In this document: positions 4,886-45,619 of the stretch, piece by piece
Layout: each line of letters begins with the position of its first letter
How positions within the stretch are numbered: the first letter of the stretch is position 1
Origin: an uncultured Deinococcales bacterium
GTDB taxonomy: Bacteria > Deinococcota > Deinococci > Deinococcales > JAAFIG01
DNA: 64,000 bases
NCBI GenBank assembly: GCA_964247135.1
Contig: CAXTTL010000001.1
Coordinates: 1 to 64,000 of the forward strand
Direction: 5' to 3'
Translations under genes and position numbers: made by a program
Notes under the pieces: model-generated
Told to the model about the DNA's origin: nothing
Database searches by the model: none
What the model saw: the letters and a program-made list of their open reading frames with translations, nothing else

Positions 4886-6091
4886 TTGATGGACTTTCAA
4901 AACGCTCTGGCATTGCGTGAATTGAGTGCCAGTGATCTGCTCGAAGTCCTCAATCCAAGCGAAGCTTATGTAGACTATGCGCTCGCTGGAGACCATCTGT
5001 ATGCTTTTTCAATTTCACTTGATCGCCATGTTCGCTTGCATGATCTTGGCTCGAGTGCCGCCGCCAATGCCGTTCTTGAAGCATTTCGACACAACTTGGC
5101 TACAAATCAAACTGATGACAAGTCGCTAGACCAAACGGCTTTTTCTATTTTGATGAAACCACTGGGTACACAGCTTGTGGGTCTTCAGCGATTGGTTATT
5201 GTTCCAGATGGACAACTCCATTTCGTGCCTTTTGATCTGCTCAACGATGGAAAAGCAATCTTGCTCACACAGATGGAAATCCGAAACATTCCAAGTGGAC
5301 GCGATTTGATTCGCTTGCGCCGAACCAGACAATCAAACAATCCGTCCCATGCTGTGTTGTTCGGTGATCCCGATTTTCTCTCACGGGTCATCGGAAACAC
5401 CCGTTCTGCACAACAGAATAACAAAAGTGGAGACTGGGTGTTCGGTGATTGGTTACAAGCATTGCGTTTACCTCGACTGCCTGCCACGCGTCATGAAGTC
5501 AAAATGATCAAGCAATGCTTGCCCGAAGCCACAGTGTTTTTAGGCGAACACGCCAACGAAAACAACCTCTTTGCTGTCCAGTCGCCAGAAGTCTTACACC
5601 TTGCCACCCATGCCTTTGTCTACGGGGGTGATGATGTTCCAAACCCATTGTTACGGGCTTTCGTCTGTTTGACAGGGGCGCGATTGTCGTTGCTTGAAAA
5701 AGCGTCTGACGGATTGATTTCAGCACTTCGATTGTCCACACTCAATTTGAAAGACACAAAACTGGTTGTGCTCTCCGCCTGTCGAAGTGCGCTCGGCGAA
5801 ATCCGAAATGGCGAAGGTGTGGCAGGTCTCAACCAAGCGCTGTTCACGGCTGGGGCGCAGTGTGTCATCGGTGGTTTGTGGGCAGTCCCTGATGATGAGA
5901 CGGCAGAATTTATGGCAGCTTTTTATCGTCAGCTTGTCTACGGGAAAACTTCTGCAATGGCACTACGCGATGCGAAACTCGAGTATTCACAACATCACAC
6001 ACCACATCAATGGGCGGGGTTTGTTCTAAATGGGGAATCAATCAAACTTGAAGACAGCACAAATCTCTCCAAAATATCCAGGGTAAAATAA
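4886..6091 (+). CDS. CHAT (caspase-like) domain protein, probably an N-terminally truncated TPR-CHAT
   Basis: LVIVPDGQLHFVPF, LHLATHAF (catalytic His), VVLSACRS (catalytic Cys), LWAVPDDET, WAGFVL; no TPRs and no clear RBS. Confidence 0.85.
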   Translation: MMDFQNALALRELSASDLLEVLNPSEAYVDYALAGDHLYAFSISLDRHVRLHDLGSSAAANAVLEAFRHNLATNQTDDKSLDQTAFSILMKPLGTQLVGLQRLVIVPDGQLHFVPFDLLNDGKAILLTQMEIRNIPSGRDLIRLRRTRQSNNPSHAVLFGDPDFLSRVIGNTRSAQQNNKSGDWVFGDWLQALRLPRLPATRHEVKMIKQCLPEATVFLGEHANENNLFAVQSPEVLHLATHAFVYGGDDVPNPLLRAFVCLTGARLSLLEKASDGLISALRLSTLNLKDTKLVVLSACRSALGEIRNGEGVAGLNQALFTAGAQCVIGGLWAVPDDETAEFMAAFYRQLVYGKTSAMALRDAKLEYSQHHTPHQWAGFVLNGESIKLEDSTNLSKISRVK

Positions 6092-6232
6092 TTCTTACAA
6101 CAACTTGTAGGGCGTCGGGTCATGGGCTTTTGTCTGAAACGTAAATCGTACACTCCGCAAGAAACCTGAGTCACTTACACGCACAAGAATCAACCTCGAG
6201 ATTTTCTCGAGGTTCGTTTTTATGCTTCCTCA

Positions 6233-6721
6233 ATGGTTGATTTTCAATTTTCCTCCCATGAAATACCCTTGAAATACCATGCTGCTAGCGTGCCTTTCAT
6301 GTTGACACAACAGCGGGAAGTAACGGTGACGGTTGATGCCCAAAAACATTGGTTTTCCCTCGAGTGCGGCAAGGTTCAGCAGCCTTTCCAGGGGTGGTTG
6401 GTTGGCACGGCTTCAAGCTCGAGTTTGCAGGGTGTCGCACGCATTGATTTTCGACTTCCAATGCAGCCAGCCAGCCACTTGACTTTGGAAGCCAGCATTG
6501 AACTGACCGTGTTCAATCAAACCGAGATGCACCACTGTTCGCTCGAGGAACTGCTTGAAGACATTCAACTTCACAAACGCGACGTGAGGTTGTGGTTGGT
6601 GGCGCTCCAAATTTTTCGAGCCATTCCCAAGCACAGTACGCCGGACTGGTTGCCACATTTTTTGGCAAATGCCGAACTTCATACGCTGCCAAAAACAGTT
6701 GGTGGAGGTGATGAGGCATGA
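6233..6721 (+). CDS. Hypothetical protein coupled to the downstream regulator
   Basis: ATGA overlap with 6718; possible leaderless -10 boxes before ATG 6233 (tatgct) or ATG 6299 (tagcgt). Confidence 0.6.
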   Translation: MVDFQFSSHEIPLKYHAASVPFMLTQQREVTVTVDAQKHWFSLECGKVQQPFQGWLVGTASSSSLQGVARIDFRLPMQPASHLTLEASIELTVFNQTEMHHCSLEELLEDIQLHKRDVRLWLVALQIFRAIPKHSTPDWLPHFLANAELHTLPKTVGGGDEA

Positions 6722-9700
6722 CGTTCCGTTTGCAATTGCTCGGTTTACCGAAACTCGTGGATCAACACATGGGTCTCGAGGCGTATTTGAGCACCAACAA
6801 ACCCACCCGCTTGCTGGCGTACATGGTGGCTCGGGTCGATTGGGAGGCGTTCAGCACCCTGGAATTTCTGGCGGATTTGGTGGGACAAACCGAAAAAACA
6901 AGTGTTGTGCGAACCATATTTCATCGCGCTTCCAAGGATTTAAGTGAATTGACCAGCGAGCAAAGAAGTCTGGTGGCAGGGTTGTTTTATAAAAATTTTG
7001 CTGGAAAGTACCGCAGCATCATCCAAAACGACGTTCAAGAGTTTCGTCAAGCGATCCAACAATCCAATTGGCAAAAAGCAGTCCGTTTGTACCACGGTGA
7101 GTTCTTGCAAGGCATGAAGCTGGAGGTTTCAAACACAAACGAAGCCGAAAGTGGTCTGCTCAACGCCCTTGCCAGCATTCGTCAAGAATTGTTTGAGTCT
7201 TGGTTAATAGCACGAATAAAGCTTGTTGAACGTTACCGCAAAGACCCCCTGGTGCCAGGGAGCGTGAAAGACGCCATTCAAGATTTAACTCAACTGCTGG
7301 CGGTCAGCAGTCGGGTTGAAAATCCAGAATTGGGCAAAAAATTGGTGGGTTTCGCCATTGATTTTGCGCTCTTTGCGGGAGAACCACACCTGGCTCGGAA
7401 ATGGTACGACGCCTATGTGGAGTCACTCCCTGAAGGTCTTGAACCCGATCTCGAGGTGACGAAGTTACTCGAGTCCATTTCATCGCTCGGAGATGTCAAC
7501 CACGGCGAAAAGATCAACACCCTCGGTTTTAAGGGACGCGGGAACGAGTACGAGCATTTGTGCGAATTGTTTGCCAACCCCAATTGTCGCTTGCTTTCCA
7601 TCCTTGGACCTGGCGGCATTGGCAAATCGTTGCTTGCCGCAAAATTGTACAACCATGAGGTTTTCAAACAAAAGCAGGTTTTAACATCAGCCTTGGGGCG
7701 TTTTCGTGACGGCTTAAACCACGTCTCAATGCGGGGGGTTCGTAGCGCCCAAGATGCGTTTCGGGCGATTGCCGCAGCCACAAAAATAACGTTTTGCCAA
7801 CCGAGCCTGCCACCCCAAACCGAACTTCTGCACGCCTTCAAAGGACAAGAGCGCCTGATTTTTCTGGACAACTTCGAGGACGCCCTGCCGTTTCCAGAAG
7901 TTCGAGCCTTCCTGAACGACGTGCTGTTTGAGTCACCAAAAATCAAATTCTTGGTGACCTCTCGAGAACGCCTCGAGCAACTGCATCCACCGTTGTTGAT
8001 TGGACTCGAAGAGCGTTACGAACTGGCAGGAATGAACCCTCAAGATGCCGAAATTTTGCTGGTGTCTTTGGCGGAACAAGAAAAACCTGGCAGCAGCAAA
8101 AACCTCGATGAACACGTGCTCCAGGCTTTTTACAACATGGTGAGGGGTTATCCATTGTTGATGGAATTGGCAGCCAAGAATTTTGGGGATCAAGCGCTGA
8201 ACGAGCACCTATCGGCATTGCTCGGACATCTTGACCACAAGGTTTTCACCCAAGCACAACAGGTGATTCTCGAGCAATCTGTCGCTCGGTTGCCAACCAA
8301 AACCCAACAGGCATTTTACCAGTTGAGCGTTTTCCCTTACCGGTTTACGCAAGATGCAGCCCAGAACGTCAGCGACTGTACCCTCGAACACCTGAACTTA
8401 CTGATTCGGCATTCACTGGTGCAGCGGCTCGAGCAGGGCGGGATGCTGCACCCAGTCTTGCGTGAACTGGCGTTTGCAACACTCGAGCCAACACAACAAA
8501 CAGCCTTGCAAGAAAAACACCTCGAGTATCACTTGAAGGCAGTGGCAAGTAACCAAGAGCAGATTCGGTGGATGCACGACTTGGCAAATTTACGCCTGGC
8601 GTGGGAAACACTGTTTAGGGCGGCAAATCCAAACCCAGATCAAATTGCTGAGCAAGCAAAACTCGCACAAAACCTTGGGTTGCTGGTTGAAACTCGAGAT
8701 TTGGCAGGATTCACCTTAAAACACGCCCTGACACCATCACATGCTCAAGCGACGGCTCATTTGATCTTGGCTCAACTTGAACGCCGTCAAAACATTGGGG
8801 CAGCCCAATTGCACCTCGAGCAGGTGGCAGTCTCGTGCAAGGCTTTGAATCTGATTGATCTCGAGCCAACACTTGCACTTGAGCAAGGACTCAATTTCTT
8901 AAATCATGATCTTGAAGCGGCTAAGAATGCCTTTGAGACAGCATTGCACGGTTTTGAAAAGCAACAACAGCCTTTGGGCGCGGCGAAATCCCACCGTCAA
9001 CTTGCCAGGGTCGCCAACGAGGCGCGACAATTTGAGGTCGCGCAACAACACCTAACAGCAGCCCTGACGAATTTACAACACCTGAACGAACCCCTTGAAC
9101 AAGCCAACGTCTTGACCGTGCTTGGCATTGTTTCAATTGAACAAAAAGATTATTTAAAAGCGAGGCAATTCATTCATGCGAGTACCGATTTGTACACCAG
9201 AATTGGTGTGCAATCCACGCAGCATTTTATTGCCCTCAACAACGGCACGCTTGGACATATCGAACGTGACCTTGGTAATTTTGAAGCATCCCTTGACCAT
9301 TACTTTGCGGCTCGAGAGGTTTTTAGCGGCACAAACGACCAGAAAAACCTGGGCAATGTGTACGCAGGCATTGGTGCGGTGCAAACCCAACAGCGCCATA
9401 TTCAAGAATCGCTTGAGAGTTTAGACACCGCCCTGACACTCTCAAGCGAACTTGGAGCGCCAGCGCGACAACTCGAGAACCTGTACTTGATAGCCGACGC
9501 GCTGCGTTTTATTGGTTCGCAAGATGGATTTCGGCGGTCTAAAGGTTTGGTGGATTGGTTGATTCAATCCCAGCACCCAGCCTTAGAACAACCCGTTTTT
9601 GAAAATGCCCAAAACTTACTTCTAAAACTCGAGATCAACGAGGTTTTTAGCTGGGGCAAGGAATTAAATGAAATTGTTCAAGCTGTCCTCGAGTACCTCA

Positions 9701-9723
9701 AAGCGATCTTGAGACAGCCGTGA
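6718..9723 (+). CDS. SARP/AfsR-like regulator: wHTH-BTAD + NB-ARC (STAND) ATPase + TPR
   Basis: FRLQLLGLP N-terminus, AVRLYHGEFLQG, Walker A GPGGIGKS, Walker B LIFLDNFE, LVTSRERL, GYPLLMELAA, C-terminal TPRs. Confidence 0.88.
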   Translation: MTFRLQLLGLPKLVDQHMGLEAYLSTNKPTRLLAYMVARVDWEAFSTLEFLADLVGQTEKTSVVRTIFHRASKDLSELTSEQRSLVAGLFYKNFAGKYRSIIQNDVQEFRQAIQQSNWQKAVRLYHGEFLQGMKLEVSNTNEAESGLLNALASIRQELFESWLIARIKLVERYRKDPLVPGSVKDAIQDLTQLLAVSSRVENPELGKKLVGFAIDFALFAGEPHLARKWYDAYVESLPEGLEPDLEVTKLLESISSLGDVNHGEKINTLGFKGRGNEYEHLCELFANPNCRLLSILGPGGIGKSLLAAKLYNHEVFKQKQVLTSALGRFRDGLNHVSMRGVRSAQDAFRAIAAATKITFCQPSLPPQTELLHAFKGQERLIFLDNFEDALPFPEVRAFLNDVLFESPKIKFLVTSRERLEQLHPPLLIGLEERYELAGMNPQDAEILLVSLAEQEKPGSSKNLDEHVLQAFYNMVRGYPLLMELAAKNFGDQALNEHLSALLGHLDHKVFTQAQQVILEQSVARLPTKTQQAFYQLSVFPYRFTQDAAQNVSDCTLEHLNLLIRHSLVQRLEQGGMLHPVLRELAFATLEPTQQTALQEKHLEYHLKAVASNQEQIRWMHDLANLRLAWETLFRAANPNPDQIAEQAKLAQNLGLLVETRDLAGFTLKHALTPSHAQATAHLILAQLERRQNIGAAQLHLEQVAVSCKALNLIDLEPTLALEQGLNFLNHDLEAAKNAFETALHGFEKQQQPLGAAKSHRQLARVANEARQFEVAQQHLTAALTNLQHLNEPLEQANVLTVLGIVSIEQKDYLKARQFIHASTDLYTRIGVQSTQHFIALNNGTLGHIERDLGNFEASLDHYFAAREVFSGTNDQKNLGNVYAGIGAVQTQQRHIQESLESLDTALTLSSELGAPARQLENLYLIADALRFIGSQDGFRRSKGLVDWLIQSQHPALEQPVFENAQNLLLKLEINEVFSWGKELNEIVQAVLEYLKAILRQP

Positions 9724-9762
9724 AACAAGAATCGAGTTCACTGAAATTCTAAGGAGATCACC

Positions 9763-12033
9763 ATGAAAAAAAATTGGTTCTTTGGATTGTACCTCGCTTT
9801 GGCAGTGACTTTCGTTGCTTGTCCCACAGCGCCATCTTTTGGCATTAATGGACATTTTTACCCCGACCCAACCACGTTTGAAGCTTGCGTTTCGGGCAAA
9901 GTGGAATTCAAACCCGATGCCAATGTGAATTTAACTGGTGTTGAAATCGAGTATGACTTTGGCGACAACACGGGTTTGCTTCGCACCAGCAACACCCGTA
10001 TCAGTCACGTCTACACCAAAGCAGGGACGTACACGCCAAACCTCAAATTCTTTCAGGGCAGCAGCGACACGGCAATGAGCGCCAACGTGAACTACCAGCA
10101 GATCGTCGTATTAAGTTCCAAAAATTGCCCAGCCAATACCACCATCAACAGCGTCTCAGACTACCTTGTCAAACTCGATAATTCGGTCGGTGATGTCTCG
10201 AGTGTCGCCAAAAAAATCGCAAGCGAAGTTGGTGGCAGTGTTCTTTTTGAATACCACAACGCCATCAAAGGTTTTGCGGTGCAAATGAACAACAAGCAAG
10301 CCGCCAGCGTCGGCATCAACAGCAACGTAGATCAAATGCTGGTGGATTTTGAGCTACAAAGCACCAGCACGCAAACCCCAGTCGAAACCTGGGGACTTGA
10401 TCGTATTGACCAACGTGACTTGCCGTTAAGTGGCTCGTACAGTTACGACCAGAACGGCAGCAACGTCAATTTTTACGGCATTGATACGGGCATCCTGACC
10501 AGTCACAACGAATTTACGAGCAGGATCGGCAATGGTTTTGACGCGGTAAACGATGGCAGGGGACTCGAGGATTGCAATGGTCATGGTTCGCACACCAGCG
10601 CTACCGTTGGGGGCACACAGTACGGCGTTGCCAAAAAAGTCATCATTCACCCCGTGCGCGTCTTGGATTGCAGTGGCAGCGGCACGCTCGGCGCGGTGAT
10701 CGCGGGTGTGGACTGGGTGGCAGGTAACGCGATAAAACCAGCCGTGGTCAACATGTCACTGGGTGGTCAAGGACATGCCCCGTTGCTCGAGCAAGCCATC
10801 ACAAACACTGTGGCAAAAGGCATCACCTTCGTGGTTGCGGCAGGCAATGGGCAGGGCGATGATGCTTGCAATTACACCCCAGCTCGTCTTGGTGAAAACG
10901 GTACGACCATCACCGTAGGCGCGACGGACAACACCGACAAGCTCGCCAGTTTTAGCAACATCGGCAAATGCGTCAACATCTTCGCGCCTGGGGTCAACAT
11001 CCTTTCTGCATGGAAGAACTCGAGCAGCGACGCGAAAAGCATCAGTGGCACGAGCATGGCTGCCCCGCATGTGGCAGGGGCAGCCGCGTTGTACCTCTCG
11101 AGCAACCCAACAGCCACCCCAGCCCAAGTGCGCGATGCGCTGATTGCCAATGCGACGAATGGCAAAGTGATTGGCTTGGACAGCCTCAGTCCAAACAAAC
11201 TCTTGTTTGTCAGCGCCTCGAGTAGCGGCGGCGGCAATGTGTCGGTGACCATTGCACCAGGCGATCAAACCATGCAGGTCGGCGAGAAACGCAGTTTTGT
11301 GGCAAACGTCACAGGCTCGAGCAATACTGATGTTTCTTGGGAATACGGCAGTGGCGGCAGCGACTCGAGCGGCAACAATTTAACTTACACCGCCCCGACC
11401 ACACCAGGCGTGTACTACCTGAAAGCCACCAGTGTGGCAGACCAAAGCAAATCCGCCACCGTTCACATCACCGTGCAAAGTGCAGTATCAGGGGTCGGCG
11501 TGAGCATTGACCCGCGAACCGCCATTTTGCAATCTGGCGCGAAACAAGCTTTTACCGCCACCGTCACTGGCTCGAGCAACACCAGCATTCTCTGGGAGTA
11601 CAGCGGTGGCGGCACAAGTGGCAGCGGCAACACCGTAAACTTTACCGCGCCGAATACACCAGGCGTCTACACCCTCAAAGCCACCAGCGTGGCAGACCGC
11701 ACGAAGAGTGCCAGCGCCATCATCACGGTCACGAGTGCCCCCGCAACCCAGGTTCAGGTCACGATCACCCCAAGCCTCGCCAACCTGCACGGCGGCGAAA
11801 AACAAACCTTTATCGCCACTGTTACAGGTACGAGCAACACTGATATCAGTTGGAACTTTGGAGGGTTGCCCGCAGGCACAAAAGTGGTTCAGACCAGAAG
11901 CGCCCGTCAAAGTAACACCACCGAATTTACGGTTGTTGCCCCCACAAACGTCACCGACAACTACCAACTGACTGCCATAAGCCTCGCAGACCCCAGCAAA
12001 ACGGCGCAAGCCCTGATTCACATTGCGCCTTAA
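9763..12033 (+). CDS. Lipoprotein S8 serine protease (aqualysin/proteinase K-like) with PKD, I9 and Ig-like repeats
   Basis: Lipobox FVAC; YDFGD PKD; WGLDRIDQ, IDTG, NGHGSH, GTSMAAPHVAG; about three Ig-like repeats. Confidence 0.93.
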   Translation: MKKNWFFGLYLALAVTFVACPTAPSFGINGHFYPDPTTFEACVSGKVEFKPDANVNLTGVEIEYDFGDNTGLLRTSNTRISHVYTKAGTYTPNLKFFQGSSDTAMSANVNYQQIVVLSSKNCPANTTINSVSDYLVKLDNSVGDVSSVAKKIASEVGGSVLFEYHNAIKGFAVQMNNKQAASVGINSNVDQMLVDFELQSTSTQTPVETWGLDRIDQRDLPLSGSYSYDQNGSNVNFYGIDTGILTSHNEFTSRIGNGFDAVNDGRGLEDCNGHGSHTSATVGGTQYGVAKKVIIHPVRVLDCSGSGTLGAVIAGVDWVAGNAIKPAVVNMSLGGQGHAPLLEQAITNTVAKGITFVVAAGNGQGDDACNYTPARLGENGTTITVGATDNTDKLASFSNIGKCVNIFAPGVNILSAWKNSSSDAKSISGTSMAAPHVAGAAALYLSSNPTATPAQVRDALIANATNGKVIGLDSLSPNKLLFVSASSSGGGNVSVTIAPGDQTMQVGEKRSFVANVTGSSNTDVSWEYGSGGSDSSGNNLTYTAPTTPGVYYLKATSVADQSKSATVHITVQSAVSGVGVSIDPRTAILQSGAKQAFTATVTGSSNTSILWEYSGGGTSGSGNTVNFTAPNTPGVYTLKATSVADRTKSASAIITVTSAPATQVQVTITPSLANLHGGEKQTFIATVTGTSNTDISWNFGGLPAGTKVVQTRSARQSNTTEFTVVAPTNVTDNYQLTAISLADPSKTAQALIHIAP

Positions 12034-12104
12034 AAAAATGACGCTCAAGAAACGCAGGAGAAAATCTCTCTGCGTTTCGACCTGTTCAAACTCGAGGAGG
12101 GATT

Positions 12105-15100
12105 ATGAACAACTGGCAGTTTTTTCGATTGATGACGGTGGCAACCACACTCGCGGTGGCATTGGTTGCCTGCCCACCGACCCAACCCCCACCTTCGGAA
12201 GCCACGCTGAAAGGCAGTTTCCGAGCAGATTTAACCAACGTGAAAATGTGCCAAACCATCACGATCACACCCACCATCGAATTTGGTAGTTTGCTCTCGA
12301 GCCAGGTGGATTACAGTTACGATTTTGGCGATGGCAGTCCCGTTGAACGCACCGCCAACTTTGAAATATCGCATACCTACCTCGAAGCCAAAAATTACGT
12401 GGTCACTGCCAAAGCATTTATAGACAAGAAAACCACGGCTGCGCTCGAGCAACCCTTGTACATCAATGTCACCACCGACGCACCATGCACTTACATTGGC
12501 TCGATCAAAACAACCAGTGGCATGTCACAACGCGCCAAAGCTCGAGCCGCCAGCGATGTTGTCACTGCATCGGGGGGCGAAGTCGTTTCGGTTTACACCG
12601 AGTTGTTCACGGGATTTTCAGCCAAACTCACACCCACCTCCGCCGCCAAAATACGTGCCGACTCGAGCGTTCAAGACCTGCAACTCAGCCTGAGTGGAAG
12701 CACCACAGGTACGCAATCCGACCCGCAAATCCCGTGGGGACTGGATCGAATAGACCAAACCAGCTTGCCGCTGGATCAATCTTTTTCGTACACCACCACC
12801 GGCGCCGGCGTGGACGTTTACATTGTGGATACGGGCGTGCGAAGCACCCACAACGAATTTGCTGGCGGACGGGTCAAAGCTGGTTACAGCGTTTTTAAGA
12901 ACGACCCAAGCACCGATGACTGCAACGGACACGGCACGCACGTCGCGGGCATTGTCGCAGGATCAAACTCTGGCGTGGCAAAAGGCGCGACCATCATCCC
13001 AGTGCGGGCGCTGGATTGCGACGGTCATTTTGACCACGACGAACAAATCCTCGATGCCCTCGAATGGATTTTGAAAAACCGCAACCCAAACCACCCGAGC
13101 ATCATCAACCTGAGTTTAAGCCGTCAAACTCAAACTTATGGGCAAAAACTTTTTATGGATGAAGCCATCAAAAACCTCGAGACCAAAAACATTTTTGTGA
13201 TTGTGTCCGCTGGAAATGACAGCAACAGTTCGTGCTTGTACAGCCCCGCAAACGTTGGTGGCAACAGTTCCGTGATTACGGTCGGAGCCGTCAACCGTTT
13301 TGATGAACGCATGGCAGCCAGCAACGAAGGTCCTTGCACCAACATCTTCGCACCAGGCGAGAAAATCAAAAGCGCAGGCATCAGCGATGACAACAGTTCT
13401 GCGACCTTAAGCGGTACGAGCATGGCAGCCCCACACGTGACCGGAGCGCTCGCGTTGTATCTCGAGGCAAACCCGAATGCCACACCTGCCAGTGCCAAAA
13501 AAGCCTTGCTTGATGCCGCCAGCAAAAACGTGGTCAAAAACATTCGCTTTGGAGCGCCCGCCAATTTATTGTTTGTTGCACCAATCAATGCCAGCACGAT
13601 CAGTGTGGACGTACAGCCACGTACCATCACGCTCAAACCTGGAGAAAGCCAAACGTTTACCGCCACCGTCACGGGAAACAGCGACACCAGTGTGACCTGG
13701 GAATACGGCAGCGGCATCAATGCGGGCAGTGGCAGCAGCCTAAAATTCACCGCACCAAACACCGCAGGCGTGTACACCCTGATCGCCAAAAGCCTTGCCG
13801 ACCCAAGCAAAAGCGCCAGCGCCACCATCACGGTCAGTGCTGCCACCTCGAGCATCAACGACGTGAGCATCAGCCCCAATGCCCCAACCGTGGCGGGGGC
13901 TGCGACCCAAGATTTCACCGCTACCGTGACAGGAACGGGTGCTTTTAGCAGTGGTGTGACCTGGGCAATCGAAACTGGTGGTGGAAGCCTGAGTGCAACA
14001 AAAGGTGCAACCGTGACCTTCACTGCGCCAAGCGTCAGTGGTACAACTCGAGTTCGGGCAACCAGCGTACAAGACCCGAGCAAAAGTGGCACGGTCAACA
14101 TCACCATCAATGCCGCAAGTGCTGGCGCTGGCGTGAGTGTTGCGCCGAACAGCGTGAATTTACAGATTGGGCAGAGTCAAAACTTCAGTGCCACCGTAAC
14201 AGGTTTGTCCAATACGGATGTGACTTGGAGCGTGACCCCAACAGCAGGTGTGACGTTCTCGAGCAACGCCAGCAGTGCCGTGTTTTCTGGGACTATTCCA
14301 GGGGCATACACGTTGACGGCAACCAGTATCAGCGACAACAGCAAAAAAGGGATTTCAACTATTAACGTTTTGCCTGATGCCATTGTGACCCTGACCCCGA
14401 ATGCAGCACAAACCATCAATGCGGGTGTGCCACTCGAGGTGAGCGCAGTGGTAACAAATGCGGTAAACACCAATGTCACTTGGAATGTCAGCCCAACCAC
14501 AGGAGCGAGTTTGACCCCAAATGGCAACACGCTTTCGTTCACGGGGAATCTGGCTGGAACGTACACTCTGACTGCGACGAGCACCGCAAATCCGATCAAA
14601 ACCACGACCTTGAGTATCACGGTTCAAAGAACAATCAGCATTAGTCCAGCAAATCTCGAGACTTTTGTGGGGATTGAGCATACTTTCACAGCAAAACTTT
14701 TGGGGTTCAGCAATAGCGATGTGCTTTGGGGTGTTTCACCGCTTGACGGCGCAAGTTTTATCATTAACGGTACAACAACCAAATTTACAGCAAACCAGAC
14801 AGGCAGTTGGACAGTAACAGCAACCAGCGTTCAAGACCCCAGCAAGCAGGCTGCGGTTGTTATTCAAGTCGGAAACGATATTGCTGTTCGACACACCATC
14901 AATAAAATAAATCGAAATGTGCCTAAAATGTTTGAAGCCACGATCAGACCATCTTTGGGCGCGGTAAATTGGTCTGTTTCGCCAACCTCAAATACAACAC
15001 TGATCCCAAATGGGAATCAAGTCGAATTTTCAGCTTCACAATACGGGACTTATACACTGAAAGCGACCAGTAGCTTAGATTCCTCAAAATCAGATTTATT

Positions 15101-16142
15101 TCCAGTATTTGTGACTAGCCTGCAACGTGTTGCTGGCGGCTACGACCATTCTCTGGTTATTAAATCTAATGGATCACTGTTCGCATTTGGAATCAATACT
15201 TATGGAGCAATAGGAGATGGAAGTACAACAAGTCGATCTATTCCTGTAGAAGTGATGCAGGATGTCATCAGTGTCAGTGCCGGAAATGATCATTCACTTG
15301 CACTTAAAGCAGACGGAACATTGTGGGCATGGGGTTGGAATCTTGGTGGTCAACTTGGAGATGGAACAATTACAACTCGACTAACACCTGTAAAAATTAT
15401 GACCAATGTAATAAGTATTAGTGCAGGTCGCTATTACTCATTAGCACTTAAAACAGACGGAACTTTATGGTCTTTTGGGTCAAATGATCGTGGACAGCTT
15501 GGCGTTGGTACATTGGTTGATAGTTCAGTCCCAAAACAAATTATGACAAACGTCGTCGCCATGAGCGCTGGTTCGTATCACGGGTTTGCTTTGAAGGCAG
15601 ATGGAAACCTATGGAGTTGGGGCTGGGGTGGGTATGGTCAACTTGGGACGTTATTGCACTACGATACGCAGAGTCCTCTTCAAGTGATGAGCGGGGTTTC
15701 AAGCATGAGTGGTGGCTATGGGCATTCGATGGTGATCAAACCCGATGGGATACTACTCGCATTTGGATTGGGTGCTGCGGGGCAACTTGGTACAGGATCA
15801 TCATCTGACTACAATGACCCATCGCAATCAATGGTCGGAGTCGCAGATGTTAGTGCAGGTGTTGCACATACAACAGTGCTGAGAATGGATGGTACAGTAT
15901 GGACTTTTGGATACAATTTAAATGGTCAGTTAGGTGATGGCACTGTAGACGGACGTTACACCCCACTTCAAGTCATGTCCGAAGCTATCAGTGTTGTAAG
16001 TGGAGGAGCACATACACTTGTTGTCAAACCCAATGGGACGTTGTGGACATTTGGACGAAATGCGAGTGGTCAGCTTGGTGATGGCACATTTATTCAAAGA
16101 AATTTGCCCATTCAAGTCATGACGGGAGTCATGCTTCCCTAA
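12105..16142 (+). CDS. Lipoprotein S8 serine protease with PKD, multiple Ig-like repeats and a C-terminal RCC1 beta-propeller
   Basis: Lipobox LVAC; VDTG, HGTHVAG, GTSMAAPHV; RCC1 repeats such as SAGNDHSLALKADGTLWAWGWNLGGQLGDG. Confidence 0.93.
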   Translation: MNNWQFFRLMTVATTLAVALVACPPTQPPPSEATLKGSFRADLTNVKMCQTITITPTIEFGSLLSSQVDYSYDFGDGSPVERTANFEISHTYLEAKNYVVTAKAFIDKKTTAALEQPLYINVTTDAPCTYIGSIKTTSGMSQRAKARAASDVVTASGGEVVSVYTELFTGFSAKLTPTSAAKIRADSSVQDLQLSLSGSTTGTQSDPQIPWGLDRIDQTSLPLDQSFSYTTTGAGVDVYIVDTGVRSTHNEFAGGRVKAGYSVFKNDPSTDDCNGHGTHVAGIVAGSNSGVAKGATIIPVRALDCDGHFDHDEQILDALEWILKNRNPNHPSIINLSLSRQTQTYGQKLFMDEAIKNLETKNIFVIVSAGNDSNSSCLYSPANVGGNSSVITVGAVNRFDERMAASNEGPCTNIFAPGEKIKSAGISDDNSSATLSGTSMAAPHVTGALALYLEANPNATPASAKKALLDAASKNVVKNIRFGAPANLLFVAPINASTISVDVQPRTITLKPGESQTFTATVTGNSDTSVTWEYGSGINAGSGSSLKFTAPNTAGVYTLIAKSLADPSKSASATITVSAATSSINDVSISPNAPTVAGAATQDFTATVTGTGAFSSGVTWAIETGGGSLSATKGATVTFTAPSVSGTTRVRATSVQDPSKSGTVNITINAASAGAGVSVAPNSVNLQIGQSQNFSATVTGLSNTDVTWSVTPTAGVTFSSNASSAVFSGTIPGAYTLTATSISDNSKKGISTINVLPDAIVTLTPNAAQTINAGVPLEVSAVVTNAVNTNVTWNVSPTTGASLTPNGNTLSFTGNLAGTYTLTATSTANPIKTTTLSITVQRTISISPANLETFVGIEHTFTAKLLGFSNSDVLWGVSPLDGASFIINGTTTKFTANQTGSWTVTATSVQDPSKQAAVVIQVGNDIAVRHTINKINRNVPKMFEATIRPSLGAVNWSVSPTSNTTLIPNGNQVEFSASQYGTYTLKATSSLDSSKSDLFPVFVTSLQRVAGGYDHSLVIKSNGSLFAFGINTYGAIGDGSTTSRSIPVEVMQDVISVSAGNDHSLALKADGTLWAWGWNLGGQLGDGTITTRLTPVKIMTNVISISAGRYYSLALKTDGTLWSFGSNDRGQLGVGTLVDSSVPKQIMTNVVAMSAGSYHGFALKADGNLWSWGWGGYGQLGTLLHYDTQSPLQVMSGVSSMSGGYGHSMVIKPDGILLAFGLGAAGQLGTGSSSDYNDPSQSMVGVADVSAGVAHTTVLRMDGTVWTFGYNLNGQLGDGTVDGRYTPLQVMSEAISVVSGGAHTLVVKPNGTLWTFGRNASGQLGDGTFIQRNLPIQVMTGVMLP

Positions 16143-16424
16143 ACCAATCCTCGAGCCTCCCTCAACCCTTACAAACCCAAACGCCTTTCAATCCTCGAGC
16201 CTCAAAAACTCGAGGATTATTTTGCTTATGAAATACGTTTGAAACACGCCAGCGATACCCTTTGGTCACTCGAGGTTGTTCCCTCGCTCGAGCGGAAAGG
16301 ACAGGTAACATTTGGACTTTTTTTAATGGCGCAAAGTCGGTGATGTTCGGTTTCAAAAATTTAGTGAGCGCAGCGAACTCTTGGCGGACTACGCTGCGCC
16401 CTCGCCCCCGAATCAGGAGACTGT

Positions 16425-16577
16425 ATGAATTATACTGCTCGAAAGTTGGCTCGTGTGAGCCTTGCGCTGGCGTTGTTTTTGTTTGGTGTGGTTGCGGTTC
16501 AACGTGTGGCTTTGGTGCATTCCGCACCTGCGGTGTTGCTGGCAGATGATGGTTCAACAAAACCAACAGGTGGCTGA
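16425..16577 (+). CDS. Small secreted propeptide 1 (50 aa; absent from the ORF track): MNYTARKLARVSLALALFLFGVVAVQRVALVHSAPAVLLADDGSTKPTGG
   Basis: RBS aggaga; basic N-region plus hydrophobic core; intact paralog of 16744-16899. Confidence 0.85.
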   Translation: MNYTARKLARVSLALALFLFGVVAVQRVALVHSAPAVLLADDGSTKPTGG

Positions 16578-16645
16578 AATCAAAACTGGGTGTTGAAGAT
16601 GACTAACTATCCATCTGATTACTCATCTTGCGTTAGAATGTGTAG

Positions 16646-16724
16646 GTGGGGAAAACTCAAACTGTCCAGGATCAACAGTTCGGTTATGTGCTAGTTTTTC
16701 GACATGTAATCTGACGTTGCCCTG
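16646..16724 (+). pseudogene. Decayed 5' stub of the TPR regulator gene (duplicate of 16961-17038)
   Basis: Same upstream cgttagaatgtg; reads LKLSRINSSVMC*FFDM*SDVAL versus intact LKLTEVSGTAVRLFQNAQPEAAL, with a 1-nt insertion and two stops. Confidence 0.7.
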
Positions 16725-16743
16725 CCCCAAACAAGGAGATCGT

Positions 16744-16899
16744 ATGAATAATACTGCTCGAAAGTTGGTTCGTGTAAGCCTTGCGTTGGCTTTATTCTTG
16801 TTTGGTGTGATAGCTGTGCAACACTCAGTATTGGTGCATTCCGCGCCTGCGGTGTTGCTTGCAGATGATGGTGCAAAACCAGCAGGTGGTGGTGGCTAA
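16744..16899 (+). CDS. Small secreted propeptide 2 (51 aa): MNNTARKLVRVSLALALFLFGVIAVQHSVLVHSAPAVLLADDGAKPAGGGG
   Basis: RBS aggaga; signal-peptide-like; paralog of 16425-16577. Confidence 0.87.
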   Translation: MNNTARKLVRVSLALALFLFGVIAVQHSVLVHSAPAVLLADDGAKPAGGGG

Positions 16900-16908
16900 A
16901 CTCGAGTT

Positions 16909-16935
16909 GGGGTGGTGAATAACCACCCCTTTTTG
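16909..16935 (+). terminator. Intrinsic terminator after peptide 2
   Basis: ggggtggt-gaata-accacccc followed by a T-run. Confidence 0.75.
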
Positions 16936-16947
16936 AATATCTCACGT

Positions 16948-16953
16948 TAGAAT
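16948..16953 (+). promoter_or_regulatory. -10 box for a leaderless TPR regulator transcript
   Basis: TAGAAT 7 nt upstream of GTG 16961, no SD; conserved in the duplicate copy at about 16634. Confidence 0.6.
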
Positions 16954-16960
16954 GTGAATC

Positions 16961-18673
16961 GTGGGGGAACTCAAACTAACCGAGGTCAGCGGGACGGCAG
17001 TGCGTTTGTTTCAGAACGCGCAGCCCGAAGCTGCCCTCGAATGGTTTCAACGTGCTGCCAAGCTCGCGCAGAAATTCGCGGATTGGCAGCATTTGCGTGA
17101 AGCCTGGGATTCGATTCCCGAAACACAACGCCGTTCGAGCATGGATTGGGCGTGTGCGTATGCTAGGGTGCTGGCTGCCTGTGAAGAAGCAGACGCTTTA
17201 CTTGTTTGGACGGAAATAACAATCCCATTGTTCCCAAACGATTCTCGAGTGGATTTGTTGCTCGAAAAAAGTTATGCCTTGCTCATGCTCCGACGTTTCT
17301 CGGATGTATGTGCAATTCTCGAGCCACTTGTTGGGCTTCAAGGGAATGCCTTGGTGATGCAGCAAAAACGACTTCTGTGGGCAAAGTCTCAACTGCATTT
17401 GGATTGGTCGCTCGAGTTGGTGCAACTTCGGGCGGTGCTGTTCGATTGGCAAAACAACCAAATACCACAAGGCGTTCATGTCACGGGTTGGGCGATTGGT
17501 TTGGCGTTTATTGATGCTGGGTCTTGCTGTTACCAAGAGTTACGTGACACCGACGCTCGAGCCTGCTGGCGTGACGCCTTGCCGCTCGTTCAACATGACG
17601 CATATTCCGCTGCATGGTGTCATTACAATTTTGGCATCAGTTACCTCCGAGAGTTGCAACTCGAGAATGCCGAACATCACTTGCGGTTCGCACATCAACT
17701 GGTGTTGGATCACAAGAAAATCAAATCGCTTCAAACCCTGACGCTTCGAGGATTGGCGGCGTTGTACCGCGTTCATGGAGAATGGGATTTGGCACTTCAG
17801 AATTACCACGATGCGTTTAAAAAGGCTTCCGACGATGCCGACAGGGGTCAAGCCCTTCTTGGTCTTGGAAGGAATCTACGGCTCTCACAGCGCCCCCTGG
17901 AAGCCAAGCAACCGCTCTACCAATTCTTGGGTTTGAACATCAAAAATCCTTCCGAAGCCCACCTCGAGTTGGCAGCCGTGTACTTGCGGCTTGGCGATGT
18001 CATCGAAGCCAAACGCTGCCTTGCGCAAATCACCATGGTTTTTGGCGCTGACCGCGATCTGCTGCGAATCTTAAACGCCGAAATCGCCCGCCTCGAAGGA
18101 AATCCAAACGAAGTCCAACAACAACTTGAAGGTCTGAGCATGACCTCACGTTTGGCGCGGGAAGAAGCCACGCAATTTCCAGAACTCTGGTTGTTCTGCA
18201 AGTTGCTCTTCATGCCAGTCCCAGAAATCCTGCCCTTGCTGGGCAGAACCCAAGTTCGGGTTTTTGCTTGCGGGGTGCTGCGCGTCCTGGTCAACGGACG
18301 CGACATCAGCATCAACCCAAAAGCCAAGCACGCCCAACTGCTGGTGCGCCTGCTCGAGACTCCACAGCGCTCCGAAAGCATTGAACGCCTGATTGACACG
18401 CTTTACGACGACATGCCAAACAAAAAGAACAAAGACAACCTCGACAAACTGATGCTCGAGTTGCACGACAGACTCGGCTACAAAGGCAGCGTTCAAAAAC
18501 GCAAAGGGCAACTCTTGCTCGACCCGAACGCGATCTGGTGGTACGACGCAACCGAAGTCCGAAACCGTCGCCGCAAAGCCAATGCTTTTCTCGAGGGTGT
18601 CTACTCCGATTGGGTGCAAGAGATTGAACACGAATTGCTGGCGCTCGAGCCGTACCAAAGCGTCCTGAATTAA
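16961..18673 (+). CDS. TPR-repeat transcriptional regulator with C-terminal SARP-like winged helix / partial BTAD
   Basis: Helical TPR-like repeats (AWCHYNFGISY, LRGLAALYRVHGEWDLALQNY, ALLGLGRNLR); C-terminal VRVFACGVLRVLVNG...LLVRLL...LIDTLY...WWYDA...FLEGVYSDWV. Confidence 0.8.
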   Translation: MGELKLTEVSGTAVRLFQNAQPEAALEWFQRAAKLAQKFADWQHLREAWDSIPETQRRSSMDWACAYARVLAACEEADALLVWTEITIPLFPNDSRVDLLLEKSYALLMLRRFSDVCAILEPLVGLQGNALVMQQKRLLWAKSQLHLDWSLELVQLRAVLFDWQNNQIPQGVHVTGWAIGLAFIDAGSCCYQELRDTDARACWRDALPLVQHDAYSAAWCHYNFGISYLRELQLENAEHHLRFAHQLVLDHKKIKSLQTLTLRGLAALYRVHGEWDLALQNYHDAFKKASDDADRGQALLGLGRNLRLSQRPLEAKQPLYQFLGLNIKNPSEAHLELAAVYLRLGDVIEAKRCLAQITMVFGADRDLLRILNAEIARLEGNPNEVQQQLEGLSMTSRLAREEATQFPELWLFCKLLFMPVPEILPLLGRTQVRVFACGVLRVLVNGRDISINPKAKHAQLLVRLLETPQRSESIERLIDTLYDDMPNKKNKDNLDKLMLELHDRLGYKGSVQKRKGQLLLDPNAIWWYDATEVRNRRRKANAFLEGVYSDWVQEIEHELLALEPYQSVLN

Positions 18674-19491: not shown

Positions 19492-20775
19492 ATGAAAAAA
19501 CTGTTGTCCGCGTGTTTGGTTGCCTTGATTGGTTTGGTGGGTGTGACTGCCCAAAACCAGTCGCCGTCGTTTCAATTCGTGCCTGGTGAAGCATTGGATG
19601 TCACTATAGGATTAGATGGTGTTGTATGGATTATTGGTACGACACCGTTAAAAGAAGGTGGGTATGGAATCTTCAAAAAAACACTTTCTGGTTGGCAAGA
19701 GCTTAATCTCGATGCTGTGGTTAGGAGTAGATACGGGGAATCCGGGGCTGTTAAAGTTGCAATAGACCCCGACGGAAACCCTTGGATCGTAACTGCAAGT
19801 AGTCATATTTATCGATGGGTTAGAAATGCTTGGGAGTTTTTGGGCGGTGATTTCAAAGACGTTGGGATTGGTGCAAATGGAGCTGTATGGGCAATAGGAA
19901 CAAACGCAGAACCATATACTTGGGTTGGTTCTCAGTGGGTACATTACTTTTTTGATAAATTACCTTGCGCTGCTAATAATGGTTATGGCGACTATTGCCA
20001 ACGAGTTTCAGTTGATTCAAATGGCGATCTTTACATTCTTGATGACAAGCGAGAAATTTACAAAAGCACGGGAATGCTTGACTATTTTGCTGCTATTCAA
20101 CGCGGTTCAAAGGACGTCAGTTTGGCATGGACAAGACTACCAGGCTTATTTACAGATATTAGTGTAGGAGCAGCAGACAACAGCGTGTTTGCCGTTAGTT
20201 CAGTCCCTTACCGTGGTGGTGGTCAAGTCTTCAAATGGGCAGCTACAGACTGGAATCCACTGCCCGTGGGTGGAACTGATGTTGCGGTTGACATCAGAGG
20301 ATTTCCGTGGCTTGTCAACTCGAGTTACAAAATCCTGACCGACTCGAGCAATTCCGAACCCGCCACGCTGAAAGACACGATTCTGGCGGTCAATGCGCCG
20401 TGGTTGCAAAACAAAAATGCTTTGGCTTTAAGTGACGCAAAATTCAGTCCACAATTTGGCGGCACGGTTTCGTTCTCGCTCGATTTCACGAACCAGAATT
20501 TAACCCCCATCGCGTTGCAGTACAACCTTTCGGACCTCGTGAAGCTCGAGAGTAATGGCAAAACCTACACCATTGGTTTTGGGCAGAACAGCAAATGCAG
20601 TTCGTTCTCCGAAACCGTCGCGCCGGGGGCAACGGTGCGTTTGAAATGCACGTCTGAATCTGAAGGTGCGGCGGTGTTTGGCATTGCCGACACGAGCATC
20701 AAAGAATTTGTCGTCAGTATTGCGGCGCTTGGCGGAATTCAAAATGCGCGTTGGCTTGTACCAGTCAAACGCTAA
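19492..20775 (+). CDS. Secreted tectonin-like beta-propeller (lectin-like) protein, paralog 1
   Basis: Signal peptide; repeats DVTIGLDGVVWII, VAIDPDGNPWIV, DVGIGANGAVWAI. Confidence 0.8.
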   Translation: MKKLLSACLVALIGLVGVTAQNQSPSFQFVPGEALDVTIGLDGVVWIIGTTPLKEGGYGIFKKTLSGWQELNLDAVVRSRYGESGAVKVAIDPDGNPWIVTASSHIYRWVRNAWEFLGGDFKDVGIGANGAVWAIGTNAEPYTWVGSQWVHYFFDKLPCAANNGYGDYCQRVSVDSNGDLYILDDKREIYKSTGMLDYFAAIQRGSKDVSLAWTRLPGLFTDISVGAADNSVFAVSSVPYRGGGQVFKWAATDWNPLPVGGTDVAVDIRGFPWLVNSSYKILTDSSNSEPATLKDTILAVNAPWLQNKNALALSDAKFSPQFGGTVSFSLDFTNQNLTPIALQYNLSDLVKLESNGKTYTIGFGQNSKCSSFSETVAPGATVRLKCTSESEGAAVFGIADTSIKEFVVSIAALGGIQNARWLVPVKR

Positions 20776-20795
20776 CTCGAGATTGGAGGAAATCA

Positions 20796-22118
20796 ATGCG
20801 AAATGTACTTTCTGCTTGTTTGGTAATTGCTATTGGATTGTTTGCTGTCACCGCCCAAACCCAAACGCCGCAACCGTATAAGGTTGTTCCAGGCGATGCA
20901 ACGGATGTTGCTGTGGGAAGTGATGGCAGTGTATGGATTGTTGGAGCGAAAACGATCACAACAGCGGAGCGAGACGGATATGAAGTCTTGAAGAAAGCTG
21001 GCACAGGATGGGAAAATATTTCTCTGACAGGAATTGGCAACCACGACGGTATGTTTTATGGCGACAAAACTGACTACAAAGGTGGTGCATTTAAAATTGC
21101 CATCGACTTACAGGGTAATCCTTGGATCATCAATGGGCATCGAAATGTGTACCGTCGTTTGAAAAACACTTGGCAAATCATTAAGGATTCTCGCGCCGAA
21201 GACATTGCAATTGGCAAAACGGGGGCTGTTTGGATTGTTACACCAAATAACGATGTTGCCACATGGGATGGGTCGAAATTCGTCAAGTACATTGGGAAAG
21301 ACTTGACATGTGGATTGTCCTCACATTTTGCTTACAACAGTTGCTCAAGAATTACTGTCGATTCGTTTGGGAACCCTTGGGTAATTGATGATAAATCGGT
21401 GTTGTACCGCAGCACTGACATGAAAGGGTTTTTCACCGCGTTGCAACGTGGCGATGCCGAACCCACGGCTGGCTGGGAAACCATGCCTGGAAAGTTTTCT
21501 GACGTTGGCGCTGGAGCAGATGGAAGCGTCTTCGCCGTGACCACCACCCCGTACCAAGACGGTGGTCAGGTGAGCGTGTGGGACGCGGAGGCATGGAAGC
21601 CGCTTGAAGTTGGTGGAACGAATATTGCCGCTGACAGCAAAGGCTTCCCGTGGATTGTCAACTCGAGCAACAAAATCCTTACCGATGCTCGCAACACCGA
21701 ACCGCTCACCCTGGCTGGAGCCGCACTGAAAGTTAACGATACCTGGCGTCAAGAGAAGTCCGCCTTGACCCTGAAGGATGTCAAGTTTTCCAAAAACCTT
21801 GGTGGAACAATTTCTTTCACGCTCGAGTTTTTGAATCAAGACCCTTCATTGGTCACATTCAAGTACAACCTGACCGATCTGGTCACGTTGGTTTCAAACA
21901 ACACTTCTTATCACCCAATGTTTGATCAAAAAACCAAGTGTGCCACGAACAGTGCCAGCGTTGCTTCAGGCGAAATCCTTCGATTGACGTGCCTTAACGA
22001 CGCTGGTGGAATGGTGAATTTCAAGCTTGCCGATGCCACGATTAAACAATTCGTGGTCACCGTTTCCAGCCTAGTCAGCATTCAAAACGCACGTTGGCTC
22101 GTGCCAGTCAAACGCTAA
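20796..22118 (+). CDS. Secreted tectonin-like protein, paralog 2
   Basis: RBS ggagga; same repeat pattern and shared C-terminus IQNARWLVPVKR. Confidence 0.8.
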   Translation: MRNVLSACLVIAIGLFAVTAQTQTPQPYKVVPGDATDVAVGSDGSVWIVGAKTITTAERDGYEVLKKAGTGWENISLTGIGNHDGMFYGDKTDYKGGAFKIAIDLQGNPWIINGHRNVYRRLKNTWQIIKDSRAEDIAIGKTGAVWIVTPNNDVATWDGSKFVKYIGKDLTCGLSSHFAYNSCSRITVDSFGNPWVIDDKSVLYRSTDMKGFFTALQRGDAEPTAGWETMPGKFSDVGAGADGSVFAVTTTPYQDGGQVSVWDAEAWKPLEVGGTNIAADSKGFPWIVNSSNKILTDARNTEPLTLAGAALKVNDTWRQEKSALTLKDVKFSKNLGGTISFTLEFLNQDPSLVTFKYNLTDLVTLVSNNTSYHPMFDQKTKCATNSASVASGEILRLTCLNDAGGMVNFKLADATIKQFVVTVSSLVSIQNARWLVPVKR

Positions 22119-44652: not shown

Positions 44653-44661
44653 TTGAAATGG

Positions 44662-45542: not shown

Positions 45543-45619
45543 GGCTCGAGTATAAGATTTTGGGATGTTCGTGCATGTGATATATCCGCACACCGATTTC
45601 CCGCAATTTTATCCCGATC

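Follow-up and report, generated by a model that had tools for sequence, protein, structure and literature searches.

A tandem duplication of a small peptide gene beside a TPR regulator gene in an uncultured Deinococcales bacterium, and the candidate peptide-regulator cassette family to which it belongs

The duplicated locus

The locus described here lies in a window of 64,000 nucleotides, positions 1 to 64,000 of the forward strand of contig CAXTTL010000001.1 (GenBank assembly GCA_964247135.1), from an uncultured bacterium of the order Deinococcales; all coordinates are those of this window and all features of the locus are on its + strand. Two small open reading frames (ORFs), peptide gene 1 (16425..16577, 50 aa) and peptide gene 2 (16744..16899, 51 aa), are followed by the gene of a 570 aa putative receptor/regulator protein (16961..18673), hereafter the receptor. 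A Shine-Dalgarno sequence AGGAG is present 5 nt 5' of the ATG of peptide gene 1 (16415..16419), with the same AGGAG and spacing for peptide gene 2 (16734-16738). Peptide 1 has a basic N-terminal end, a hydrophobic core, and a candidate cleavage site, ...VHS/APAVLLADDGSTKPTGG, which in peptide 2 reads ...VHS/APAVLLADDGAKPAGGGG.

The region 16398-17032 is a genuine, old tandem duplication. Unit 1 (16398..16718, 321 bp) aligns with 16719-17032, while its left flank does not align, and unit 2 (16719..17032, 314 bp) is continuous with the intact receptor gene. The units are arranged head-to-tail, each carrying a Shine-Dalgarno site, a pre-peptide ORF of 50 or 51 aa, a spacer, a box with the sequence CGTTAGAATGTG, and about 24 codons of the receptor. 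Read directly from the sequence, the hexamer GCCCTC is at the left boundary (16398..16403), where homology begins, GCCCTG is at the joint between the units (16719..16724), and GCCCTC is again at the right boundary (17033..17038), where it forms receptor codons for Ala-Leu, the Leu being invariant in 19 family members.

Each segment of unit 1 was globally aligned to its counterpart in unit 2, with 500 shuffles for each pair. The stretch from the junction to the ribosome-binding site is 76% identical (19/25), the peptide ORF 85% (127/150), the box 12/12, and the receptor stub 60% (45/75; 68% in its first half and 53% in its second), with none of the shuffles reaching these scores; the spacer is 62% identical (28/45), a score reached by 1 of 500 shuffles. 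The 60 nt to the left of unit 1 (48% identity, z 0.2, 233/500 shuffles reaching the score) and the 60 nt to the right of unit 2 (48%, z 0.3, 199/500) are at the level of random sequence. Homology therefore starts and stops at the GCCCT(C/G) hexamers, as an earlier note on this DNA had read from positions 16398, 16719, and 17033, and the extent it gave to the duplication, from the peptide gene through the spacer and promoter box to the receptor 5' end, is borne out by the alignments. A repeat search also identified a gap-free direct repeat of 168 nt (16406-16573 and 16725-16892, 80% identity, spacing 319), while Tandem Repeats Finder returned 0 rows for the region because the two copies are this diverged.

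The locus has the pattern of a short-homology duplication, in that its two copies lie head-to-tail between unrelated flanks and one short sequence recurs at each outer end and where the copies meet. That the same 5-6 bases are found at both ends and at the joint, exactly where the homology ends, makes microhomology a plausible mechanism, to be read as a single case of an old event in which the right-hand hexamer is within conserved receptor codons.

Decay and selection within the two units

In unit 2, there is an intrinsic terminator between the peptide gene and the receptor (16909..16934), with an 8-bp G+C-rich stem, a 5-nt loop, and TTTTT, which is found both by consensus scan and by folding. 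The spacer that contains it folds at -24.8 kcal/mol (z -5.09), with 0/200 shuffles as good. The corresponding spacer of unit 1 (16578..16630) folds at only -10.4 kcal/mol (z 0.06), with 98/200 shuffles as good, and the consensus scan finds a hairpin (16909-16929) and T-run in unit 2 only. Beyond the spacer, copy 1 of the box (16631..16642, with TAGAAT at 16634-16639) is a possible internal promoter for peptide gene 2, by its identity to copy 2 (16945..16956). The -10-like TAGAAT of copy 2 (16948-16953), 7 nt before the receptor GTG, suggests that the receptor mRNA is leaderless.

The receptor 5' end is present in unit 1 as a dead stub (16643..16718, aligned to 16957-17032). Its GTG (16646) is directly followed by one extra base, and in the receptor-homologous frame there are a TAG (16691-16693) and a TAA (16706-16708). 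The frameshift, the two stops, and the eroded terminator are thus all as the earlier note had described them.

The peptide ORFs have fared differently from the stub and the first terminator. Across 49 aligned codons, in which 73.5% of sites are replacement sites, the Nei-Gojobori method counts 9 replacement and 13 silent differences, giving a replacement divergence (dN) of 0.088, a silent divergence (dS) of 0.441, and a dN/dS of 0.20. Under neutrality, 16 of the 22 changes would be expected to be replacements, and neutrality is rejected (p=0.0013). The mismatch rate is also lower in the ORF (23/150) than in the spacer and stub (47/120; p=1.2e-5), so that divergence is not uniform across coding and non-coding parts; uniform divergence is what the earlier note had named as refuting its reading. 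In the first 33 codons, the signal-peptide part, dS is 0.66, close to the Jukes-Cantor distances of the spacer (0.53) and the stub (0.57), which makes the ORFs as old as the rest of the units, gene conversion not being needed to account for their similarity. These comparisons bear out the proposal that purifying selection has preserved both peptide ORFs, whereas the stub and the first terminator have fallen into decay.

The differences between the two peptides are not mainly in the tail, contrary to what had been claimed: there are 7 replacements within the first 29 residues, 0 within residues 30-43, and 2 in the tail, together with two indels there. The tails read GSTKPTGG in peptide 1 and GAKPAGGGG in peptide 2, the indels being the loss of one codon and the gain of two. 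Residues 30-43, the 14 that precede the tail (LVHSAPAVLLADDG), are the same in both peptides, with 2 silent changes only. These codons differ at 2/42 nt, against 21/108 elsewhere in the ORF (p=0.024), which may be due to constraint, a small conversion tract, or chance.

With ORFs this short (150 nt) and 22 substitutions, the test has limited power, the likeness of codons 30-43 could be a conversion tract, and the 51-aa peptide 2, unlike peptide 1, is absent from the NCBI/ENA record. It could therefore be argued that one of the peptide genes is silent or decaying and is intact through chance or gene conversion, and not through selection. We regard this as very improbable, since both genes retain the ATG, the AGGAG with its spacing, an open frame, and a signal-peptide-like shape next to a stub and a hairpin that have been destroyed, since dN/dS is low, and since the neutral level of dS in the first 33 codons means that conversion cannot explain the whole ORF. 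Exact matches are on record from three sources for peptide 1 and, for the 51-aa peptide 2, from an independent Logan contig of 2,544 nt, which argues against the window being an assembly artefact.

The receptor

The Pfam matches of the receptor are to TPR families only (TPR_12/TPR_2), and its NCBIfam matches are to generic TPR models only. An AlphaFold2 model built from 19 relatives (pLDDT 92.2, pTM 0.84) has helical repeats, as a TPR superhelix, over residues ~1-415, followed by a strand and helix domain at 431-536; no membrane segment is seen in the model. Modelled alone, the C-terminal domain has a pLDDT of 90.4, and its Foldseek matches are led by AfsR (8hvr_I, E 5.7e-6, TMq 0.66) and EmbR (2ff4, E 6e-4), with a long list of OmpR/PhoB effector domains after these (VicR, PhoB, PhoP). 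At the level of sequence, the winged helix is only weakly recognised, with a sub-threshold Pfam Trans_reg_C match (E 0.052) and profile matches to CarR, CadC, and EmbR at E 0.035-0.36. The model would make the receptor a cytoplasmic sensor-regulator, with the sensor first and a SARP/OmpR-type winged helix last.

In structural alignments, the TPR part gives Z scores of 25.1 with OGT, 24.1 with LGN, 22.1 with both RapI and the phage phi105 Rap, 21.5 with MalT domain III, 19.9 with NprR-NprX, 18.6 with AimR, and 14.8 with PlcR. Foldseek with the whole receptor model places generic TPR proteins alone at the top, and a profile search of the PDB returns consensus TPR proteins, OGT, and similar, with no known family of RRNPP peptide receptors. 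The modelled fold is thus compatible with a peptide receptor but singles none out. A predicted complex of the TPR domain with pre-peptide 2 scored 0.01, against a mark of 0.32. At receptor residues ~160-175, there is a 14-residue insertion (around DWQNNQIPQGVHVT) that is missing from the seven closest aligned relatives.

The cassette family in the Deinococcales

The source genome (5.09 Mb, 386 contigs, 84% complete) encodes three further receptors, which are 33-37% identical to that of the window. A receptor match is present in 22 of 41 related genomes, the source genome included, and in 17/18 of those within the same family. The counts given here across related genomes are non-independent and describe the habit of the family; they are not a statistical test. 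By record title, the carriers are Deinococcales metagenome-assembled genomes and Calidithermus roseus NBRC 110900. Look-ups of protein clusters extend the list to Meiothermus ruber, Meiothermus sp. QL-1, and a Deinococcus plasmid; the annotation of the proteins is no more specific than 'tetratricopeptide repeat protein' or 'helix-turn-helix domain-containing protein'. When 1.84 billion representatives were searched with a profile, 272 clusters were obtained at E <= 1e-30. No orthologue of the window receptor was found among the species representatives searched, where the best match is only 34% identical. A search for homologous proteins returned only the two window peptides for the peptide query and only itself for the receptor query, and no relative came from scans of metagenomes, whether the receptor protein or a 25-nt pattern of the peptide ORF was used. 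From these sequence comparisons, the peptide-receptor module appears to be specific to the order Deinococcales.

The DNA of 57 receptor genes was inspected, with L007, L015, L036, L053, L054, and L061 set aside and 51 having at least 250 nt upstream. A small ORF that passed a peptide filter, on the same strand and within 400 nt 5' of the receptor, was taken as a peptide gene. Such a gene is present for 44/51 receptors, as a single copy at 42 loci and as two copies at only the window and L009, which answers the question of peptide copy number in related loci raised by the earlier note. Among the others, L004 has a peptide gene that is downstream and convergent, L040b and L047 have atypical candidates, and L057, L060, L062, and L067 have no upstream peptide gene by this filter. 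All 4 receptor paralogues of the source genome have their own peptide gene. Gly-tailed orphan peptide genes were not found elsewhere in the genome by a crude filter, which also missed peptide 1.

The peptides share a common plan, with a basic N-terminal end, a hydrophobic core, a short linker, the motif (A/V/G)(D/E/G)(D/E), and one of two types of tail, either Gly-rich (…PKTGAGGG, …PGGGTGG, …TKGGTGG) or ending in two cysteines (…PKPCxxC, …GPHCC). Secretion was judged by rule of thumb (basic N-terminal end, 12-16 hydrophobic residues, small residues at -3/-1), and the N-terminal parts are accordingly candidate signal peptides. On the receptor tree, a quick tree with SH-aLRT support, the tail classes cluster, with 14 changes compared with 20.6 under shuffling (none of 200 shuffles was as low). 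The spacer between peptide and receptor folds with z <= -2 in 32/38 cases, and TANNNT is present 4-9 nt before an in-frame receptor start in 24/45 loci, against 10.5 expected, which fits the leaderless mRNAs common in Deinococcus; the figure given for D. deserti is 60% (PMC4007540). By the shared spacer hairpin and TANNNT, unit 2 is a typical member of the family and unit 1 a decayed copy of the same layout.

The window receptor pairs on the tree with that of L039, from a genome of the same genus (SH-aLRT 94), on long branches, the two receptors being only ~33% identical. The single peptide of L039 ends LLADDGGSGTKPTGG, which the tail of peptide 1 resembles. With L039 as outgroup, the tail of peptide 1 (GSTKPTGG) would be the older form and that of peptide 2 (GAKPAGGGG) the derived one.

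Several other loci differ from the usual arrangement. At L009 (G008:C41, oriented 985-1155 and 1233-1370), the two peptide genes are of different tail subclasses (...VDDNPKPCSVC and ...ADDPKPCPACRR); the DNA there has no tandem-duplicate homology, which rules out a tandem duplication, and its two genes therefore arose in another way. At L070 (G000:C70:13839-14081, - strand), the paralogous receptor on contig C70 of the source genome has no peptide gene upstream, and a convergent small ORF just downstream ends ...AYADPTLPCVKCRR, resembling the second L009 peptide (...AFADDPKPCPACRR), so that the gene order of the cassette is not fixed. At L040 (G013:C212:10228-17820), there are two complete peptide-receptor cassettes within 7.6 kb on the same strand. 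Beside the C13 paralogue is a gene for a classical SARP-like protein of 1,183 aa (L068:5543-9091, G000:C13), with BTAD, AAA_16, and TPR domains, and the cassette on contig C9 lies next to a gene for a WYL-domain protein and to CRISPR-Cas genes of type I-C (Cas3, Cas5d, Csd1). Full-length receptor matches at L057 and L058 (G017:C71, G012:C17) and at G014:C27 have one in-frame stop each (TAG, TAG, and TAA, respectively), and these may be broken copies or two genes.

Copy number in a close relative

Five sequencing runs are listed as containing the window sequence, at shares of 0.06-0.19, with no RNA run among them. In 4/4 runs of one study, there are contigs of a relative, 90-95% identical to the window, in which 16552/16553 is joined to 16944/16946. 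These contigs match the window from the upstream spacer through peptide gene 1 to directly after the DDG codons, where 69-72 other letters, which fit neither unit at 85%, intervene before the match resumes at the unit-2 box and continues into the receptor. Reads aligned to the window do not cover 16599-16931 in any of the 4 runs. In the relative's contigs, this part of the locus has the length of one unit, and the relative therefore would have one peptide gene. On this evidence, the copy number of the peptide unit appears to vary among relatives.

Interpretation of the doublet

We give a probability of about 0.6 to the reading that this is a duplicated front module of a two-gene cassette, in which exported peptides are bound by the adjacent TPR regulator and the two peptides form a redundant doublet on one receptor. 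The duplicated piece starts 27 nt before the ATG, so that the peptide promoter, upstream of 16398, would have been left uncopied, and peptide gene 2 would therefore be expressed by read-through from gene 1, made possible by the missing first hairpin. Transcription may also start from the retained copy of the receptor -10 box, TAGAAT at 16634. Both pre-peptides would be exported by Sec, cut after ...VHS, and perhaps trimmed further. By analogy with RRNPP systems, the mature peptides would re-enter the cell and bind to the TPR domain of the regulator in the cytoplasm, and this would switch DNA binding by its winged helix, the outcome being density-dependent signalling. An Opp/Dpp-type importer is encoded in the window at 43039-49968, although such operons are common. 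With both peptides acting on the adjacent receptor, the doublet would be redundant or would raise the dose, and might be a 'promiscuous intermediate' on the way to a possible shift in specificity, not yet two pherotypes.

That both peptides serve the adjacent receptor is most likely, judged from the pattern of sequence change, because LVHSAPAVLLADDG stayed identical while the tails drifted, because the corresponding residues change from one orthologous cassette to another when the receptor differs (…QPAPMILADD in L003, …QPTPQILADD in L049), and because Gly-rich tails look alike across unrelated cassettes. The earlier note had favoured signal divergence instead, with the two tails recognised as distinct and one peptide serving as a second pherotype or an antagonist, or addressing another receptor. 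All of the differences in the mature part are in the tail, and the active peptide in many RRNPP systems comes from the C-terminal end. Tail and spacer are also the most variable stretch, being where the contigs of the relative stop matching, after the DDG codons, until the box. There is a precedent in full-gene duplications of phr with diverged autoinducers in Rap-Phr loci (PMC5199041). Against this, similar Gly-rich tails occur in very different cassettes, and TKPTGG itself recurs in L039 in spite of the low identity of the receptors, while the block before the tail, which does vary where receptors differ, is the same in both copies. No receptor in the genome is left as an orphan for a second signal to address, each of the four having its own peptide gene. 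The STAND-TPR protein at 6718, which had been suggested as such a receptor, has AAA_16/NB-ARC and TPR domains and belongs to another family, and a link to it is not supported. Two peptides that both activate one receptor explain the identity of LVHSAPAVLLADDG no less well than two signals do, and signal divergence is accordingly unlikely, though it has more in its favour than the other alternatives.

It is also conceivable, and in our view quite improbable, that the small proteins are secreted or membrane-anchored products (bacteriocin-like, like ribosomally synthesized and post-translationally modified peptides, or surface tags) that are controlled by the regulator and not re-imported, in which case the duplication doubles the product. 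The DNA-binding domain resembles that of SARP activators, which regulate biosynthetic genes near their own; tails of one class have two cysteines at the end (…PKPCxxC, …CC), like some ribosomal peptide products; and peptide binding by the receptor is putative. However, the cassettes have beside them no conserved gene for a modifying enzyme, a dedicated exporter, or immunity, one peptide accompanies one regulator across at least 44 loci in varied neighbourhoods, the class of peptide follows the receptor clade, and a large TPR sensor domain needs a ligand.

A number of observations weigh against a redundant doublet signalling through the adjacent receptor. The TPR domain resembles generic TPR proteins at least as closely as it does RRNPP receptors, and 7/51 receptor genes have no upstream peptide gene that passes the filter. 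The link between peptide and receptor comes from adjacency and co-inheritance, and kinship alone can yield both. The DNA 5' of 44 peptide genes yielded no operator common to all of their promoters, but only the genome-wide CTCGAG and group-specific blocks, and the four paralogues have no conserved neighbours, so that a regulon cannot be named. The 12/12 match of the box in unit 1 falls short of significance on its own, and a function for this copy is presumptive, because ~0.32 perfect 12-mer runs are expected by chance in this background.

The history of the copy number also does not follow simply. Neutral divergence between the units is ~0.55 (~40% at unconstrained sites), far above the 6-10% difference between this genome and the relative. 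A simple recent duplication in this genome does not fit that contrast, and a simple recombinational collapse in the relative does not fit the 69-72 middle letters, which match neither unit at 85%. The order of events may have been an old duplication with later loss, or something else, and the single unit of the relative could have its source in repeat collapse in short contigs of 4-6x.

Genomic surroundings

Upstream of the locus, on the same strand (4886-16142), are genes for a CHAT-domain protein (4886-6091) and the STAND-type AAA_16/NB-ARC and TPR protein (6718-9723), followed by two that encode large secreted S8 subtilases (9763-12033 and 12105-16142). Both subtilases contain PKD/Ig domains, and the one at 12105-16142 also has a C-terminal RCC1 beta-propeller. 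The four genes could be targets of the regulator or could encode enzymes that process the peptides. Just downstream of the receptor gene (19492-22118), there are two neighbouring genes for Tectonin-domain (beta-propeller) proteins with signal-like N-terminal ends, which are possible members of a regulon.

The palindrome CTCGAG is present 376 times in the 64 kb, against 11.3 expected from dinucleotide-preserving shuffles, in which the largest count was 20. Examples are at 16150, 16194, 16209, 16269, 16287, and 16901, and the stretches ~14.7-16.1 kb and 19.4-24 kb have few copies. It is also the most frequent 7-mer core 5' of the peptide genes of related genomes. A repeat element, an uptake or methylation-related sequence, and codon or dipeptide bias are possibilities for the excess.

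Significance and comparison with known systems

The duplication itself is a modest event, and its value is that it exposes, and internally dates, a peptide-regulator cassette family. The dead stub and eroded hairpin provide a neutral yardstick beside two selected peptide genes, a rare datable snapshot, and the doublet makes it testable how specificity can shift while signal and receptor stay in contact. The open-access literature searched contained no description of this Deinococcales family. We would tentatively go further, at somewhat less than even odds, and propose an undescribed, independently evolved family of peptide quorum sensing in the Deinococcales, consisting of a Sec-exported pro-peptide with an acidic motif and a cytoplasmic 'reverse SARP' receptor, and caught in the course of diversifying, with the second copy rewired, its tail diverging, and the doublet polymorphic. 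Peptide signalling through cytoplasmic TPR proteins has been treated as a speciality of the Firmicutes; if the proposal is true, the design has evolved more than once, and the same route of 'duplication-dependent divergence' as in Rap-Phr has been taken in an unrelated system and phylum. The presence of the family in cultured strains of Meiothermus, Calidithermus, and Deinococcus makes it testable at the bench.

Of the systems compared, the SARP regulators (AfsR, EmbR, and DnrI type) are related through the DNA-binding part. The C-terminal 150 residues of the receptor model fold like the DNA-binding domain of AfsR and EmbR together with the first helices that follow it, and AfsR carries TPRs as well. 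In SARPs, however, the winged helix is N-terminal and is followed by a full BTAD, whereas the domain in the window receptor is at ~431-536 of 570 residues, Pfam finds no BTAD in this protein, and it has no NB-ARC/ATPase domain.

In the case of the duplication, the nearest comparison is with Rap-Phr and NprR-NprX loci, in which duplication and divergence of the pheromone gene within the locus has been described (PMC5199041; Felipe-Ruiz et al. 2024, PMC11343458). Duplication of phr or other pheromone genes beside one receptor, whole-gene cases included, has been proposed to be a transient promiscuous intermediate (Even-Tov et al. 2016, PMC5199041). Here too, a signal gene would be doubled beside a single unduplicated receptor, with copies that diverge in the putative signal region and a copy number that appears to vary among relatives. 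Most of the published cases are repeats inside one propeptide, whereas in the window a 320-bp unit of DNA including the promoter box and the receptor 5' end was duplicated, leaving a datable dead stub and, it would seem, a rewired transcription unit; the receptor families are also non-homologous.

The RRNPP(A) systems (Rap-Phr, NprR-NprX, PlcR-PapR, Rgg-SHP, PrgX, AimR-AimP) share with the Deinococcales cassettes the adjacent genes for a propeptide and a putative cytoplasmic TPR regulator, the many divergent paralogues per genome, and a TPR part that aligns structurally with Rap, NprR, and AimR (Z 18-22), with generic TPR proteins scoring as high. As defined for RRNPP_detector, such a system has an adjacent gene for a Sec-type propeptide of 10-100 aa and a cytoplasmic TPR receptor, and the search was confined to Firmicutes and viruses and to receptors of 250-500 aa (PMC10075063). 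The Deinococcales receptors, at 530-590 aa, are outside this range, and the family is in the Deinococcota, not the Bacillota. The predicted order of domains is inverted, with the sensor first and the DNA-binding domain last, and the latter is modelled as a SARP/OmpR-type winged helix and not as an XRE-type helix-turn-helix or the N-terminal three-helix bundle of Rap. The peptide gene precedes the receptor gene and has a terminator of its own, and a leaderless receptor mRNA is probable. There is no link by sequence family in Pfam or NCBIfam, and the Deinococcales family is known here from sequence and models alone. By analogy, then, the cassette family looks like an independent invention of RRNPP-style signalling, one that would work like RRNPP quorum sensing and yet, by domain order, DNA-binding domain, sequence family, and phylum, is not a member of it.

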